Part shown: positions 3,650 to 55,423 of the stretch, piece by piece
Numbering within the stretch: position 1 is the first letter of the stretch
How the letters are laid out: the number at the start of each line of letters is the position of its first letter
NCBI GenBank assembly: GCA_964427275.1
Contig: CAYRSR010000001.1
Coordinates: 20,394-84,393 of the forward strand
DNA: 64,000 nucleotides
Reading direction: 5' to 3'
Origin: an uncultured Candidatus Saccharibacteria bacterium
Lineage (GTDB): Bacteria; Patescibacteriota; Minisyncoccia; UBA6257; CAYRSR01
The notes under the pieces: model-generated
Told to the model about the DNA's origin: nothing
The model's input: the letters and a program-made list of their open reading frames with translations, nothing else
The model's database searches: none
Translations under genes and position numbers: made by a program

Positions 3650-3942
3650 TTAATAAGCTAATTTTGATACTTTAGTCAAGCGACCAGTAAACCTTAGTCT
3701 CAGTGATTAATTTAAATCTAAACACTTTTAGAAATACCCTCTTGTGGTCTTAATACTCAAGTTAAGTATTTTATTTAGTCAGAAACTTATTAGAAATCGC
3801 ATAAAAATGATAGCTAATTTTTCAATTGTAGTCAACAAAAAATCATACCTAAAAACATACTCAAATTAATCTAAGCCTTGACAAAAGTAAGATTTTATGC
3901 TAACTTATTACCAAATAAAACGATCTTTAAAAAGGAGGGAGA

Positions 3943-4257
3943 ATGGATAGAGAAGATAAGCATTTAGACATAACAAAAAAACTGAAGAAGTTAGTAGAAG
4001 AAGCAGGAGATCCGGTCCATTTGGACACCCCATGGTGTAAAAGATGGAGAGAAACTCACCCTAATTGCAAGGGCTGTGAATCAGAACTCGGATGTGCTAA
4101 GTTGACCAGATTAATGCAATTAGTAGCCCTTTCTTCTCTTTGTCCAGTTGAGAGAGAAGTAATAGAAGAACTTAAATCAAAAATCTTAAAAGCTAGAACA
4201 ATTGAGGAGCTCAATAAAATTGTTGATGAAGAGGATCTTTTTAACCCGCTAATTTAA
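3943..4257 (+). CDS. small Cys-rich hypothetical protein (possible zinc-binding)
   Basis: 104-aa ORF preceded by a strong SD (AAAAGGAGGGAGA-ATG). Contains a C-x-n-H-x2-C-x2-C-x-n-C cluster and is followed by a terminator hairpin. Confidence 0.5.
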   Translation: MDREDKHLDITKKLKKLVEEAGDPVHLDTPWCKRWRETHPNCKGCESELGCAKLTRLMQLVALSSLCPVEREVIEELKSKILKARTIEELNKIVDEEDLFNPLI

Positions 4258-4266
4258 AATACTTCA

Positions 4267-4296
4267 GGCAGGCATTAAAGCCTGCCATTTTTATTT
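4267..4296 (+). terminator. rho-independent terminator
   Basis: GGCAGGC-attaaa-GCCTGCC hairpin followed by ATTTTTATTT. Confidence 0.5.
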
Positions 4297-4331
4297 AAAT
4301 ATTCCCAGCTTAACCTAAAGTTCAGTCTTTG

Positions 4332-4412
4332 TGCCCAGGGCGGGATTCGAACCCGCAGGCCTTTCGGCACGGCACCTCAAACCGTTGCGTCTGCCAGTTC
4401 CGCCACCTGGGC
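4332..4412 (-). tRNA. tRNA-Leu (anticodon GAG)
   Basis: 81-nt class II tRNA on the minus strand. Features: 5' GCCCAGGTGGCGGAA...; acceptor 7 bp; anticodon stem ACGGT/GCCGT with loop TTGAGGT (anticodon GAG, G37); long variable arm GCCGAAAGGC; T-arm GCGGGTTCGAATCCCGC; discriminator A; CCA not encoded. Confidence 0.8.
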
Positions 4413-4414
4413 AG

Positions 4415-4717
4415 TTAAATTTTTAATCGTTTTCTAATCTTTCTTTCTGATGCTTCTCTAGTCCAGTAAAGCTTGGCTCTTTTAGCTGAACCTTCCTTAA
4501 TAATCTTTACTTCAATCAAAGGTGAGTGTATTGGATAGGTCTTTTCCACTGCCACTCCTTCAATAACTTTTCTTACTGTAAAAGTAGCTCCGGGCTCACT
4601 TCCATGTTTTCTAGAAATTACTAGTCCCTCAAAGACACTCTGACTTTTCTCTCCTCTCTTCTCAATTACTCTCACTACCGCTCCAGCTCTAATTTTCTGA
4701 AGTTCTTTTTCAGTCAT
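4415..4717 (-). CDS. rplS: 50S ribosomal protein L19
   Basis: 100-aa ORF with clear L19 similarity (VFEGLVISRKHGSEPGATFTVRKV...KLYWTRE). Confidence 0.9.
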   Translation of the reverse strand: MTEKELQKIRAGAVVRVIEKRGEKSQSVFEGLVISRKHGSEPGATFTVRKVIEGVAVEKTYPIHSPLIEVKIIKEGSAKRAKLYWTREASERKIRKRLKI

Positions 4718-4729
4718 GCTTTTATAATT

Positions 4730-5461
4730 TTAACCATTCATTTTAAATTGTAAAGCATTTAAAACGTCTTCTAGATCAGCAGGAAGACCAGCTTCAATTC
4801 TAACTCTACCTTCTCTCTGCAAGAATGAATTGAATTCTAAACTCAAAGAATGAAGGAAAGGTCTCTTTAAACCAAATGGATTACTCTTTCTTCCATACAT
4901 TGAATCTCCTACTATGGGATGATGAATACTGGAAAAATGTATTCTAATTTGATGAGTTCTTCCAGTTAATGGGATTACTTTAACCAAGCTAAATTCCTGT
5001 CCTTTAAATTTAAAGCTTTTTATTCGCTGATATAAAGTTACTGCTGACTTAACTAACTTAGCCTTTTTTAGATAAGTAGTTCTTTTTACTACTCCTTTTC
5101 TGGATAATCCAATTGGTTTATCAATCTTGCCACTTTTAGGAACTATCCCAAAAATCAATGCTAAGTAGGTTTTCTTAACTTCTTCTTGTTTGAATAAATT
5201 TTTAAAGTAATCAAAACTTTTTTGATTTAATGCAATTATCATTGCTCCAGAAGTATCTCTATCCAACCGATGAACAATCCCTGGTCTGAATTTCTCTCCA
5301 ACATTTCTAACTTCCGGATAATTATCAAGCAGCCAACTTACAACAGTATTATTAGATGAATTCAAAAACTTAGAACCTACTGGCCTATGAACTAAAACTC
5401 CAGCTGGCTTATTTATTACAAGAAAATCAGAAGTCTTATAAATAACTTTAATTTCAGGCAT
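4730..5461 (-). CDS. RluA-family pseudouridine synthase
   Basis: Catalytic HRLDRDTSG motif and GRTHQIR motif. 243 aa. Confidence 0.85.
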   Translation of the reverse strand: MPEIKVIYKTSDFLVINKPAGVLVHRPVGSKFLNSSNNTVVSWLLDNYPEVRNVGEKFRPGIVHRLDRDTSGAMIIALNQKSFDYFKNLFKQEEVKKTYLALIFGIVPKSGKIDKPIGLSRKGVVKRTTYLKKAKLVKSAVTLYQRIKSFKFKGQEFSLVKVIPLTGRTHQIRIHFSSIHHPIVGDSMYGRKSNPFGLKRPFLHSLSLEFNSFLQREGRVRIEAGLPADLEDVLNALQFKMNG

Positions 5462-53387: not shown

Positions 53388-53902
53388 AAGTTAATAAATT
53401 TAATTTTAAAGTTTTTAAGCACTGCTAAATCCTTTTTTGGTTGCCCAAAGGAGTTTTGTTAGTTTTTAATTGATCCACGGACAGGTTCCCCTACCCGTGC
53501 CTTGTTACGACTTCATCCTGATCACCGAGCTGATTCTAGGTCCTTAAACAGGAACTTCGAACCCTCCCGGCTCTCCTGATGTGACGGGCGGTGAGTACAG
53601 GACTCGAGAACGTATTCACCGCGACATAGCTGATTCGCGATTACTAGCGATTCCGGCTTCATGAGGGCGAATTGCAGCCCTCAATCCGAACTGAGACTAC
53701 TTTTAAGAGATTCGCTCCGCCTTACGGCTTAGCAGCTCTTTATAGTAGCCATTGTAGCATGAGTGCAGCCCAGGGCATCAGAGGGCCATGCTGACTTGGC
53801 GTCATCCCCACCTTCCTCCCCAAAAATTGAGGCAGTTCCGCATGACACATATAACATGCAGTAGGGGTTGCGCTCGTTACCTCACTTAAGAGAACACCTC
53901 AA

Positions 53903-53934
<32 letters not shown>

Positions 53935-54175
53935 CTCCAATGTCCTTGAAGGAAGCCTCACCTTTCGGTAAGGTTTCATTGGAGTGTCAAGCCCTGGTGA
54001 GGTTCTTCGGTTATTGACGAATTAAGCCTCATGCTCCACCGCTTGTGCGAGTCCCCGTCTATTCCTTTGAGTTTTAACCTTGCGGTCGTACTCCCCAGGC
54101 GGTCTGCTTAACGCGTTAGCTACGCCACCCAGAGGGTCGATACTCTAGACAGCAAGCAGACATCGTTTAGGGCCT

Positions 54176-54209
<34 letters not shown>

Positions 54210-54441
54210 AGGCTTTCGGGTCTCAGAGTCAGGAGAGCCCCAGCTATTTGCCTTCGCCTTTGGTATTCCGCACGATATCAACGGATTTCACCCCTACACC
54301 GTGCGTTCTAAAAGCCTCTGGCTCCCTCTAGTTCGGTAGTTTCCGAGGCATTTCCCTGGTTGGGCCAGGGGCTTTAACCTCAGACTTACCGAACCTCCTA
54401 CACCCGCTTTACGCCCAGTAAATCCGGATAACGCTTAGGGT

Positions 54442-54476
<35 letters not shown>

Positions 54477-54889
54477 AACCCTTTATTCTCCACTTACCAT
54501 CAACATCTACTAAAAGGTAGATGCTTTTTCAGTGGAAAAAGCGGTTTACACTCCGCAGAGCTTCATCCCGCACGCGGCGTCGCTGGATCAGGCTTTCGCC
54601 CATTGTCCAAAATTCTCGACTGCTGCCTCCCGTAGGAGTAGGGCCCGTGTCTCAGTGCCCTTGTTGGAGAACAACCTCTCAGTCCTCCTACCCGTCATAG
54701 CCAAGGTGAGCCATTACCCCACCTTCTAGCTGATAGGCCGCAGGCCATTCCCATTCCGGCATACCATAAGATACACCTTTAATGACATCACTAAAAGTGT
54801 GTCATACTATCGGGTATTAGCCACCTTTTCAGATGGTTATCCCCGTGAATGGGGTATGTACCTACGTGTTACTAACCCGTTTGCCGCTC

Positions 54890-55210
54890 CCAGCCCCACT
54901 TTTTGGATTCAAATAAAGCATTTCTTAATTCTCTTGAAAAGTTCCTGTTTTGCACTCCCATAATGTTTTAATCTCTTTTCTCTTCTCTTCGCATCTTTTT
55001 TATTTCTATAAGCTTCGGCATAAATTAAAACCCACTTTCCATCTCTTCGGTAAGTGGCTTTTGTTTTTCCTTGATTATGATCTGTCAACCTCTTTTGAAG
55101 ATTTTTAGTTAAACCAATGTAAACTTGTTTTGTGACATTATGCTGAATTAGATAAACATACCACCACATAACCTTATTATGACTATTGAATCCAAAAAGT
55201 GAGGCTGGGC
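54890..55210 (-). other. intervening/insertion sequence within 16S helix 6, closed by a 23-bp stem and carrying an endonuclease ORF
   Basis: The exon sequence GCATGCAAGTCGTGCGC is interrupted by CCAGCCTCACTTTTTGGATTCAA...[ORF]...TTGAATCCAAAAAGTGGGGCTGG and then resumes at GAGCGGCAAACGGGTTAGTAACACGTAGG. The flanks are reverse complements, allowing one U-G. Confidence 0.6.
54909..55169 (-). CDS. GIY-YIG nuclease-superfamily protein (homing-endonuclease-like) encoded inside the 16S insertion
   Basis: YVYLIQHNVTKQVYIGLTKNLQKRLTDHNQGKTKATYRRDGKWVLIYAEAY matches the GIY-(x10)-YIG...R...E core. The ATG at 55169 has an AAGG SD. The ORF-track 5' extension to 55223 lies in the stem. Confidence 0.7.
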   Translation of the reverse strand: MWWYVYLIQHNVTKQVYIGLTKNLQKRLTDHNQGKTKATYRRDGKWVLIYAEAYRNKKDAKRREKRLKHYGSAKQELFKRIKKCFI

Positions 55211-55330
55211 GCACGACTTGCATGCCTTATCCACGCCGCCAGCGTTCATCCTGAGCCAAGATCAAACTCTCGTTTTGGGCAACCAAAAAAGAATTCAACC
55301 TGTTTAACTTTTAAAGGTACAACCACGTTA

Positions 55331-55359
55331 ATAATAGTCAAAAACTCATTGCAAGTCAA
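55331..55359 (-). promoter_or_regulatory. candidate sigma-70 promoter for the 16S gene
   Basis: On the minus strand, TTGACT-17 bp-TATTAT about 60 nt upstream of the processing stem. Confidence 0.4.
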
Positions 55360-55378
55360 GCCCATCTTGAATTAAAAA

Positions 55379-55407
55379 GAGGTAGTCCCGATTAATGGAA
55401 CTACCTC
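55379..55407 (-). terminator. terminator hairpin downstream of CPBP protease gene
   Basis: GAGGTAGT-n13-ACTACCTC followed on the minus strand by TTTTTAATTC. Confidence 0.45.
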
Positions 55408-55423
55408 CAAATAATCTTACAAT

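Follow-up and report, generated by a model that had tools for sequence, protein, structure and literature searches.

The window, a 64,000-nt stretch of DNA, carries a 16S rRNA gene whose helix 6 has given way to a stem-closed insert bearing an open reading frame (ORF) for a small GIY-YIG protein. We interpret this insert as a horizontally mobile cassette of the intervening sequence (IVS) type, one of a family in CPR bacteria, which is probably cut from the precursor rRNA by RNase III; we put the probability of this reading at roughly 0.6. The parts of the cassette are as follows.

54890..55208, minus strand: 319-nt cassette in place of apical helix 6, at about E. coli positions 70-98
55186..55208, minus strand: 5' arm of the closing stem, CCAGCCTCACTTTTTGGATTCAA, with a CCAGC...TTTT motif common to the 23S and RNase P RNA cassettes
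55176..55181, minus strand: -10-like hexamer CATAAT, exactly 6 nt ahead of the ATG
54909..55169, minus strand: 86-aa ORF for a minimal single-domain GIY-YIG protein (UPF0213/Slx1-like, Pfam PF01541), a predicted nuclease
54890..54912, minus strand: 3' arm of the closing stem, TTGAATCCAAAAAGTGGGGCTGG, which holds the ORF stop codon and covaries with the 5' arm

Aligned to the Rfam covariance model SSU_rRNA_bacteria, the 16S gene leaves a single unaligned block of 298 nt between model positions 80 and 83, at the tip of helix 6, where the original prediction had placed an insertion. Read on the minus strand the gene runs ...GCATGCAAGTCGTGCGC / CCAGCCTCACTTTTTGGATTCAA ... TTGAATCCAAAAAGTGGGGCTGG / GAGCGGCAAACGGGTTAGTAACACGTAGG, breaking off and resuming at the points proposed there. 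The cassette boundaries (319 nt, both arms counted) were set from the arms, which are 23 nt each and complementary with one U.G pair; the flanking bases C55209 and G54889 form a 24th pair. This stem, whose presence had also been predicted, is plain and continuous, without bulges, and the insert region folds at -82.7 kcal/mol (z = -4.35), with none of 100 shuffled sequences as stable. The 5' arm is followed by 16 nt, the 261-nt ORF and the 3' arm; as this last arm overlaps the stop codon, the insert has just 58 non-coding nt. Its GC content is 0.33, compared with 0.52 in the 16S body. The same insert, with a 100% match, is present on contigs of two other samples (L040 from ENA and L041 from JGI), and because of these identical copies it is not an assembly artefact.

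The host gene and the signals around it occupy the following positions.

53463..55277, minus strand: 16S rRNA gene, host of the insert (Rfam RF00177, 1415 bits, model positions 1-1533)
55331..55359, minus strand: promoter-like site of the 16S gene, TTGACT-17-TATTAT, from a consensus scan only
55378-55408: terminator-like hairpin preceding the promoter-like site, from a consensus scan only
55277..55291, minus strand: leader strand of a predicted pre-16S processing stem, CTTTTTTGGTTGCCC, pairing with the trailer
53432..53446, minus strand: trailer strand of the same predicted stem, GGGCAACCAAAAAAG, pairing with the leader

The whole Rfam model (1-1533) is covered by window positions 55277 to 53463, making this a full-length gene, and its 3' end reads GGATCA-ATTAAAAACTAACAAAA-CTCCTTT. 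The adjoining genes are protein-coding, and no 23S gene follows the 16S gene within the window. Homologues of a neighbouring protein were named Paceibacterota, Parcubacteria, Colwellbacteria, Jorgensenbacteria and Patescibacteria, in agreement with the CPR affiliation that had been suspected. The cassette stem resembles the pre-16S processing stem in the window but not in L038, L001 or L003, and this apparent mimicry was dropped as evidence. No RNase III was found among the 10 window ORFs scanned; in the related locus L129, rnc is found two genes upstream of the cassette-bearing 16S gene.

The ORF begins at the ATG at 55169 and ends with the TGA at 54911-54909, on the minus strand. Its product matches the Pfam GIY-YIG profile over residues 3-69 (E = 5e-18; 65.6 bits, cut-off 22.6), and the profile search thereby confirms the 86-aa ORF with a GIY-YIG core that had been read from the translation. 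Among 16 cassette proteins, Y6, Y17, G19, R27, H31 and E64 are invariant, as is E52; Tyr6, Tyr17, Arg27, His31 and a Glu occupy the core or catalytic positions of the superfamily, by comparison with I-TevI and UvrC. In an AF2 model of the protein (pLDDT 86.6) the elements follow one another as strand, strand, helix, strand, helix, helix, which gives the GIY-YIG alpha/beta fold with its three-stranded sheet. Foldseek matched this model to UPF0213, Slx1 and I-TevI catalytic domains, with TM scores of 0.62–0.68 (rmsd 2.4–3.1 Å) for Slx1 and a weaker 0.44 for I-TevI. The nearest group by sequence is likewise that of the UPF0213/YhbQ-type and Slx1 proteins (E = 1.4e-4 and 2.6e-3), and the NCBIfam model for 'group I intron endonuclease', TIGR01453, scored below its threshold (21.6 bits, cut-off 56.05). 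We regard the protein as a predicted nuclease. Close relatives are few, with only 9 representative clusters at E <= 1e-30 among 1.84 billion, and in the wider clade at least 75 of 98 assessable homologues lie within or beside rRNA, tRNA or RNase P RNA genes. A phage origin was rejected, as it drew only one weak tblastn match (38% identity) and one marginal PHROG match.

Comparison of the window ORF with that of L038 gave a dN/dS of about 0.10 (pS 0.57, pN 0.10), which shows purifying selection on the ORF. Two other cassettes contain decayed ORFs, one frameshifted (L033) and one without a stop codon (L003), and both have kept the hairpin. How the ORF might be expressed is suggested by a different signal from the one first proposed. 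The Shine-Dalgarno site initially assigned to it did not hold up: the AAGG ends only 2 nt ahead of the ATG, homologous cassettes do not conserve it, and the host hardly uses such cores (3 of 51 host ORFs). A TANNNT hexamer at a spacing of exactly 6 nt, in contrast, occurs in 11 of the 19 cassettes that lie inside RNA genes, where about 3% would be expected, and in only 2 of 51 host ORFs; the window's own hexamer has C rather than T at its first position. We suggest as a hypothesis that this -10-like element could serve as an internal promoter for a leaderless mRNA, though the promoter consensus scan returned no -35/-10 pair inside the insert on the minus strand.

Cassettes with the same arms (CCAGCnCCACTTTT...AAAAGTGGnGCTGG) and ORF were found in 16S helix 6, in other 16S helices, near H63 of 23S rRNA and in an RNase P RNA gene.

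16S gene, helix 6: the window, L038, L039 and L129
16S gene, elsewhere: between E. coli positions 66 and 243, and at 452-480 (L123)
23S gene, between E. coli positions 1704 and 1770: L001-4, L033, L042, L043, L122, L124, L126 and L127
RNase P RNA gene: L128 (Rfam E = 9e-31)

In host RNA genes the cassette always lies in sense orientation. Their stems are 17–24 bp long, about two helical turns, and in an alignment of 12 distinct elements the outer 14 bp pair in 100% of cells. Six of these 14 pairs have changed on both sides in a compensatory manner, values that none of 500 shuffles matched, and sliding the register of the alignment lowered pairing to only about 50%. Where stems are imperfect, the mismatched pairs read on the RNA sense strand comprise 19 G.U and 2 A.C (binomial p = 2e-4), counts which include events shared by descent, with roughly ten estimated to be independent. 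Such an excess would be expected from selection on the hairpin of the transcript and not on an inverted repeat in DNA, and these patterns of pairing in the alignment argue strongly that the closing stem is maintained at the RNA level, on the sense strand.

Hairpins of 81–177 nt with the same arm motif and no ORF also occur, at E. coli positions that match the IVS sites of helix 25 and helix 45. Helix 25 is a site of known IVS elements. The Coxiella IVS, which RNase III cuts out, lies in helix 45 (PMC4990558). Two ORF-less copies in L004 have arms identical over 27 nt and diverged interiors. We rejected the idea that the ORF-less hairpins are internal-deletion derivatives of the larger cassettes, as the two kinds share an outer arm of about 14 bp and have unrelated interiors. 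Throughout the family, whatever the gene or phylum, the CCAGC/GCTGG core does not vary, and the arm variant is specific to each genome. The elements have terminal inverted repeats of the kind that define transposons and MITEs; the flanks of 16 elements contained no direct repeat that would indicate a target-site duplication, and their first flanking bases pair rather than repeat (C-G, U-A, G-C). Inspection of the arms by eye revealed no consistent Chi-like or I-TevI 'CNNNG' motif.

Diverged copies of the cassette occupy the window's own helix 6 site in L038, L039 and L129. Among three lineages the insert DNA is 81–86% identical and the 16S bodies only 76–81%, a contrast to be read with the fast evolution of CPR 16S genes in mind, and the flanking genes differ. 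Greater conservation of the insert than of its host gene suggests horizontal transfer, and the distribution of cassettes across genes and lineages also points to horizontal movement.

These observations can be accommodated in the following model. The window insert would be one copy of a series of compact, hairpin-bounded GIY-YIG cassettes that settle in apical helices of the structured-RNA genes of CPR bacteria. It would be transcribed in sense within pre-16S rRNA, where its 23–24 bp stem stands in for helix 6, and RNase III would most likely cut the closing stem, freeing the ORF-bearing loop. The cut 16S rRNA would then consist of two pieces, one of about 75–90 nt and the other of about 1.4 kb, which the ribosome and the GC-rich stem base would keep together. 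RNase III is retained in CPR bacteria (PMC12641178), and CPR rRNA insertions are removed from transcripts according to Brown 2015, as cited in PMC11270868. The 86-aa protein probably aids the spread or retention of the cassette at the DNA level; as a counterpoint, a lone domain of 86 aa without a DNA-binding domain would be an atypical homing endonuclease. The invariant CCAGC/GCTGG core and the identity of arms within a genome go further than RNase III, with its weak sequence specificity, would require, and they hint at a sequence-specific partner.

Three fates had been left open for the insert at the outset, namely a spliced intron, an excised IVS and a segment retained in the mature rRNA. 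Group I or II introns that carry endonuclease ORFs account for many of the rRNA insertions in CPR bacteria (PMC11270868), which speaks for a group I, group II or bulge-helix-bulge intron with a homing endonuclease. However, a search of the insert against group I, group II and every other Rfam family at E <= 10 returned chance-level matches alone (mir-365, GAIT, SNORD51), although the same library detected group I introns in the related loci L001, L003 and L033 at 56–85 bits. The 58 non-coding nucleotides are all taken up by the bulge-free stem, and Tsurumaki et al. placed every GIY-YIG ORF in non-intron insertions (PMC11270868). As far as sequence can tell, an intron is excluded, and we consider it highly improbable; the insert looks like an expansion of helix 6 and not a group I core, as first thought, and an excised IVS is favoured. 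The third fate is in our view unlikely; here the mature 16S rRNA would keep all 319 nt, with helix 6 enlarged on the solvent side of the 30S subunit, and the ORF would be translated either from the precursor or from a separate internal transcript. Helix 6 is a variable helix at the ribosome surface, the stem merely lengthens it (Rfam aligns the outer arm as helix 6), and the -10-like hexamer would permit a separate leaderless transcript. Against retention, the loop is AT-rich and consists largely of coding sequence with only weak structure, which sets it apart from stable expansion segments, and the stem lengths cluster at about two helical turns like those of RNase III substrates. The ORF-less relatives, moreover, lie at positions of known excised-IVS sites, and reported removal of CPR rRNA insertions (Brown 2015, in the citation given by PMC11270868) also speaks for excision.

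Two further explanations place the function of the arms or of the protein elsewhere. The arms could mainly be a DNA signal, as transposon-like terminal inverted repeats that the GIY-YIG protein cuts as hairpin or cruciform DNA, with the RNA stem as a by-product. An invariant core with a genome-specific arm variant would suit such a signal, as would the occurrence of cassettes in three kinds of RNA gene at sites that are not homologous, and the structural proximity to Slx1, which cuts branched DNA in a structure-specific manner. We nevertheless find this improbable, as a DNA-only signal would not produce the 19:2 ratio of G.U to A.C on the sense strand, target-site duplications are lacking, every copy follows the sense of its host RNA, and no transposon family is known to use a GIY-YIG transposase. 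No likelier is the idea that the protein is an RNA-processing enzyme which binds the precursor stem and excises its own and the ORF-less cassettes from rRNA and RNase P RNA. It would explain why a sequence-specific arm core is common to ORF-bearing and ORF-less elements of the same rRNA genes, why selection acts on the RNA hairpin, and why the wider clade is associated with genes for stable RNAs. No GIY-YIG enzyme is known to cleave RNA, however, and the hairpins of L033 and L003 have outlasted their ORFs; RNase III, in addition, is available and is sufficient in known IVS systems (PMC4990558, PMC12641178). Finally, the window evidently comes from a metagenome-assembled genome, which raises the question of a chimera or mis-join, but insert and flanks are identical in the ENA and JGI samples and diverged copies occupy the same site in three other loci, by which this already negligible possibility is refuted. 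An IVS-type cassette excised by RNase III thus remains our preferred reading.

That non-intron rRNA insertions in CPR bacteria can carry GIY-YIG ORFs has been published before (Brown 2015; Tsurumaki 2024, PMC11270868); Tsurumaki et al. counted 30 such ORFs, 15 in 16S and 15 in 23S genes, at several sites (PMC11270868). The window insert belongs to the same category: compared with E. coli it adds at least 100 bp, it matches neither type of intron (group I or group II), and its ORF is of the same Pfam family in the same host group. The cassettes described here differ from that account in their covarying stem with a conserved core, their ORF-less relatives, the RNase P RNA member, and the recurrence at helix 6 of cassettes more alike than the 16S genes of their hosts. 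The main text and one supplementary file of PMC11270868 do not mention inverted repeats, and use the word 'stem' once, in an unrelated sense. Searches of the literature for the arm sequences gave no paper, those for GIY-YIG proteins with tRNA genes and hairpins, or for RNase P RNA insertions in Patescibacteria, gave nothing relevant, and one for GIY-YIG with UPF0213 returned nothing; a paper on tRNA introns in Patescibacteria does not mention GIY-YIG. In the literature searched we did not find a description of shared arms with an ORF in several genes, of ORF-less hairpins, of the covariation or the G.U bias, of selection on the ORF, or of an insert more conserved than its 16S gene.

The insert sits at the tip of a variable rRNA helix, has a long stem under pairing selection, lacks a ribozyme core and is sporadically distributed, all of which are features of IVS elements. 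A close parallel is the IVS in helix 45 of the Coxiella burnetii 23S gene, which is named alongside those of Salmonella and Leptospira (PMC4990558). Both are selfish elements at a helix tip whose terminal inverted repeats form a long stem (28 bp in Coxiella, 23–24 bp here), and both contain an ORF, are more AT-rich than the host gene and occur sporadically (PMC4990558). The Coxiella element is hosted by 23S rRNA, whereas the present one lies in helix 6 of 16S rRNA and has relatives in other RNA genes; its S23p ORF is decaying and apparently untranslated, in contrast to the GIY-YIG ORF under purifying selection, and its excision by RNase III is established (PMC4990558), while that of the present cassette is predicted.

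The I-TevI-type and T4-like phage Seg endonucleases share the catalytic superfamily, with core residues at equivalent positions. Like the cassette ORF, they are selfish genes in or beside highly conserved genes, which for SegB are tRNA clusters. I-TevI, however, is an intron-encoded protein of about 245 aa with a linker and a C-terminal DNA-binding domain, whereas the cassette protein has a single domain of 86 aa, without linker or DNA-binding domain, and its gene does not lie in a self-splicing intron. The UPF0213 or YhbQ-type proteins (PDB 1ZG2, 1YWL) are closer in build, being single domains of about 85–100 aa, but they are encoded by ordinary chromosomal genes. Slx1 acts with Slx4 and has an additional zinc-finger domain; neither UPF0213 nor Slx1 is known to be encoded inside an RNA gene. 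The archaeal rRNA introns of the LAGLIDADG type also place an endonuclease ORF in a stem-closed insertion, for whose removal a protein enzyme of the host rather than a ribozyme is responsible. They form a bulge-helix-bulge that is cut by the splicing endonuclease and ligated, whereas the stem here is continuous and free of bulges, in a bacterial host.

A bolder interpretation, which we offer tentatively and think rather doubtful, is that the cassettes constitute an undescribed class of mobile element for structured-RNA genes. A minimal Slx1/UPF0213-like nuclease inside a hairpin of the form CCAGCnCCAC-UUUU... would take the place of hairpins native to 16S, 23S and RNase P RNA genes, and would have relatives adjacent to tRNA genes; in the transcript, the hairpin would also mark the cassette for excision and so preserve the function of the host RNA, and members without an ORF would be non-autonomous elements acted upon in trans.

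CPR bacteria account for a large part of bacterial diversity and are characterised by insertions in their rRNA genes. These insertions disrupt 16S-based surveys, in which primers miss the genes and lengths fall outside the expected range. One hairpin module, with and without an ORF, in three kinds of RNA gene offers a handle on how the non-intron insertions, about half of the total, leave the transcript and spread. If protein and hairpin do not act together, the cassette would be a well-characterised ORF-bearing IVS in a 16S gene. If they do, no smaller autonomous element of its type would be known, and its protein might be a compact structure-specific nuclease of practical use.

The complete bacterial 16S rRNA gene of the window (53463-55277, minus strand; Rfam, 1415 bits, model positions 1-1533) contains a single unaligned block of 298 nt between model positions 80 and 83, which places the interruption at the tip of helix 6 (h6), where the original prediction had put it; the points at which the minus-strand sequence ends (...GCATGCAAGTCGTGCGC) and restarts (GAGCGGCAAACGGGTTAGTAACACGTAGG) match its wording exactly. 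Insert and flanks were found identical on contigs of two other samples, so the feature is real. The names borne by a neighbouring protein's homologues (Paceibacterota, Parcubacteria, Colwellbacteria, Patescibacteria) identify the host as a CPR bacterium. The inserted cassette has the following parts:

54890-55208, minus strand: insert including arms, 319 nt
55208-55186, minus strand: 5' arm, CCAGCCTCACTTTTTGGATTCAA
54912-54890, minus strand: 3' arm, TTGAATCCAAAAAGTGGGGCTGG
ATG 55169 to TGA 54911-54909, minus strand: GIY-YIG ORF, 86 aa (Pfam GIY-YIG, E=5e-18)

The arms give the 23 pairs that had been predicted, one of them U.G, and the flanking bases C55209 and G54889 add a 24th; the profile search likewise bore out the assignment of the ORF to the GIY-YIG family. 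The insert region has a folding energy of -82.7 kcal/mol (z = -4.35), and the GC content of the insert (0.33) equals the genome average, that of the 16S body being 0.52. Some pipelines call an alternative 104-aa reading with its ATG in the 16S exon; the homologues' start falls at the 86-aa position in all.

The closing stem had also been judged not to resemble a group I core, and we found no match in the insert to group I, group II or any other Rfam family at E<=10 with permissive filters, the same library detecting group I introns (56-85 bits) in related 23S loci. As the stop codon sits within the 3' arm, the ORF leaves just 58 nt of the insert non-coding, and because a plain continuous stem takes these up, no space is left for a ribozyme; the closing stem holds no bulge-helix-bulge motif. 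On a short contig, L053, a GIY-YIG homologue has a group I intron (372-630; Rfam 71.6 bits) ~190 nt upstream of it. The proposal that the ORF has its own Shine-Dalgarno (SD) sequence found no support: the AAGG ends 2 nt before the ATG, homologous cassettes carry unrelated bases there, an SD-like core precedes only 3 of the 51 window ORFs of at least 150 aa, and the 16S 3' end reads GGATCA-ATTAAAAACTAACAAAA-CTCCTTT in place of GGAUCACCUCCUUA (window 53447-53476, minus strand). The modelled 3' end lacks the canonical CCUCC anti-SD; a partial CUCCUUU follows 17 nt beyond, immediately ahead of the trailer stem. The 16S gene is linked to no 23S, 5S or tRNA gene (the only tRNA in the 64 kb is at 4332-4412); a Rce1-like protease gene lies on one side and a response-regulator gene on the other, with a promoter-like site and a terminator-like hairpin upstream. 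Its precursor stem is predicted as:

55277-55291 and 53432-53446: pre-16S leader/trailer stem, CUUUUUUGGUUGCCC / GGGCAACCAAAAAAG

This stem resembles the inner cassette stem (CUUUUUGGAUU / AAUCCAAAAAG), a resemblance not seen again at the cassette-bearing loci L038, L001 or L003.

The proteins nearest to that of the window (loci L038/L039 and L129; 80-87% identical) are encoded at the same h6 site of other CPR 16S genes, within stems that differ from the window's by a matched one-base deletion per arm and a U.G to C-G change. The next nearest (52-63%) lie within 23S rRNA genes (L001-4, L033, L042, L043, L122, L124, L126, L127), between E. coli positions 1704 and 1770, which we take to be helix 63; these cassettes have the ORF and the arms in common with the window, CCAGC(A/C)(C/T)CAC-T3-5-GG... 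and ...CC-A3-5-GTG(G/A)(G/T)GCTGG. A full-length RNase P RNA gene (L128:4734-5368; Rfam RF00010, 99.2 bits, E=9e-31) carries a cassette at 4962-5268 with arms of the same type (TCCAGCCCCAGTTTTAGGT), 269 nt being unaligned in a P16/P17-type hairpin. One 16S gene (L123:999-2475) holds three GIY-YIG cassettes, in h6, between E. coli 66 and 243, and at 452-480 (h17), with separate, differing closing stems of 19-24 bp each and proteins 38%, 59% and 34% identical to the window's. In every case the stem directly borders conserved host sequence, which indicates that the cassette replaces a native hairpin, and the ORF lies on the sense strand of the host RNA without exception among the cassettes.

Conservation of the stem was assessed by a covariation test of the outer 14 pairs in 12 distinct elements, with 500 shuffles and with registers slid by 1-3 columns. 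Pairing was standard in 100% of cells, with two-sided changes in 6 of the 14 pairs (for example A-U/C-G, C-G/U-A and C-G/G-C/A-U); the observed values were reached by 0 of 500 shuffles, and the slid registers paired in merely 37-55%. The five outer pairs past the junction pair, CCAGC/GCTGG, were invariant across the 12 elements, and this core exceeds the known needs of RNase III. The imperfect pairs bear on the level at which selection acts: from a perfect palindrome, neutral transitions would yield G.U and A.C equally, a sense A.C being an antisense G.U. Across 24 elements we counted 19 G.U against 2 A.C (binomial p=2e-4), both of the latter at the stem's inner edge; the count includes events common by descent, with ~10 independent by estimate, and its direction is still clear. 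This excess on the sense strand shows that selection acts on the transcript hairpin, which is compatible with a stem that is processed or serves as a clamp in the precursor RNA and not with a purely DNA-level inverted repeat.

Cassette-bearing rRNA genes also contain hairpins of 81-177 nt that lack the ORF and have the outer arm CCAGCnCCACTT(T/C)T...A(A/G)AAGTGGnGCTGG or the variant TCAGTTCCACTTTTT:

L038:1903-2002: 16S, between E. coli 439 and 509 (h17)
L004:1103-1199: 23S, just after E. coli 270
L004:2433-2534: 23S, E. coli 1157-1185 (helix 45)
L042:721-801: after E. coli position ~1854
L127:3358-3534: between E. coli 530 and 668 (helix 25 region)

Several correspond in position to the sites that stem-bounded intervening sequences (IVSs) occupy in helix 25 and helix 45, helix 25 presumably being another classical site. 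Helix 45 is that of the Coxiella IVS excised by RNase III (PMC4990558). The interiors of the ORF-less hairpins are unrelated to those of the ORF-bearing cassettes, which rules out simple deletion derivatives. Elements of one genome have their arm variant in common, CCCCAC for the two of L038 and CACCAC for the three of L004; between the ORF-less copies of L004, 27 nt of the 3' arm are identical and the interiors have diverged.

The window and L038 ORFs compare at pS 0.57 and pN 0.10 (dN/dS ~0.10), and the residues invariant in 16 cassette proteins (Y6, Y17, G19, T21, R27, H31, T39, Y50, E52, A60, R63, E64, K68 and R80) include the canonical GIY-YIG core. Two ORFs have decayed, that of L033 by frameshift and that of L003 by loss of its stop codon, as selfish endonuclease genes commonly do. 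Among solved proteins, BH0048 and EF2693, two stand-alone members of UPF0213, are nearest in sequence, and the folds nearest to an AF2 model (pLDDT 86.6) are UPF0213 proteins and the nuclease domain of Slx1 (TM 0.62-0.68), an enzyme that cuts branched DNA in a structure-specific manner. The catalytic domain of I-TevI matches less well (TM 0.44), and the protein scored far under threshold with the NCBIfam group I intron endonuclease model.

The tight clade is small: of 1.84 billion entries, 9 representatives reach E<=1e-30, and 981 reach E<=1e-10. Nearly all distant homologues (36-51% identical) adjoin stable-RNA genes on the same strand, most of them a tRNA gene at <=400 nt. In a census of 108 distinct proteins, of which 98 were assessable (the other 10 having an upstream flank <400 nt), 43 followed a tRNA gene within 400 nt, 12 directly preceded one, 18 were inside rRNA genes, one was inside an RNase P RNA gene and at least one lay downstream of such a gene, at a distance of ~140 nt. 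Three loci have this last arrangement, with RNase P RNA genes at 61.9-63.4 bits (under the gathering score; E ~1e-16) and homologues 40-48% identical:

L012:2507-3246, same strand: GIY-YIG homologue 3' of RNase P RNA
L075:2007-2746, same strand: likewise
L072:2059-2698, same strand: likewise

Conserved GC-rich hairpin modules surround the distant homologues. Between tRNA and ATG these read GCGCACCATTCGGTGCA.GGCTTCGCC or GGCACAATTCTGCGCC..., followed by a GGGTACCGACTGGTACCC-like module (L005-L121; e.g. L006:2900-3320, L104:2330-2900, L010:2790-3200), sometimes in tandem (L064, L017) or directly repeated on either side of the ORF (L104). Where a tRNA gene lies 0-6 nt 3' of the ORF, a partial duplicate of its 5' part stands upstream, extending to the anticodon loop (L005, L006, L007, L034 and L046-L048, tRNA-Glu) or to the T-loop (L077, tRNA-Gln); the element would seem to have entered the tRNA gene and brought a replacement segment with it. 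A direct repeat of ~90 nt (GCGCGGATGGCGGAATTGGCAGACCCGTCTGGCTGCTGCCAGCCGGACGG...) on both sides of the homologue at L107 (2350-2830) and L117 looks like part of a structured RNA.

The uniform sense orientation suggests that expression of the ORF may depend on transcription of the host RNA. An internal -10 element is likewise a candidate route: TANNNT occurs exactly 6 nt before the ATG, where the -10 element of a leaderless mRNA would be expected, in 11 of 19 cassettes inside RNA genes, often with TGn in front. At this spacing ~3% is expected by composition, and the hexamer was found in 2 of 51 host ORFs and 3 of 55 tRNA-adjacent homologues. The window copy (CATAAT, with neither TG nor -35) makes a weak case for an internal promoter.

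Tsurumaki et al. 2024 (PMC11270868) have already described GIY-YIG ORFs within CPR rRNA insertions that are not introns, so the window element is a further example of a published kind; Brown et al. 2015, as cited there, reported removal of CPR insertions from transcripts. The best-studied mechanistic analogue is the Coxiella 23S IVS, with a 28-bp terminal stem, an internal ORF and a mid-stem cut by RNase III (PMC4990558). RNase III is kept in CPR (PMC12641178), and the run L32, NusB, RNase III, S16, 16S at L129 puts its gene (3718-4437; Ribonuclease_3 and dsrm domains) two genes upstream of the 16S that bears the cassette. We infer that RNase III may excise the cassette and that the 86-aa protein may act as a nuclease, and we likewise infer the mechanism of transfer. 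The searchable literature yielded no account of a bacterial RNase P RNA gene that carries an ORF-bearing insertion, and no mention of a common arm module that covaries and has an invariant core, relatives that have these arms and lack the ORF, an RNase P RNA host, a sense-strand G.U bias, an insert better conserved than its host rRNA or a -10-like hexamer in cassettes.

Among the three h6 lineages, insert DNA is 81-86% identical and the 16S bodies 76-81%; for L038 and L129 the proteins are ~87% identical (counted from the alignment) and the host 16S ~81%. An AT-rich coding sequence that has diverged less than the surrounding rRNA speaks for horizontal transfer into one and the same site, as support and not proof because CPR rRNA evolves fast. 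Flanking genes differ in all three lineages. The h6 of L123 holds a distantly related cassette with different arms. Together these cases show that hairpin tips have been colonised repeatedly, by one cassette lineage in h6, the 23S site and RNase P RNA, and by another in the h6 of L123.
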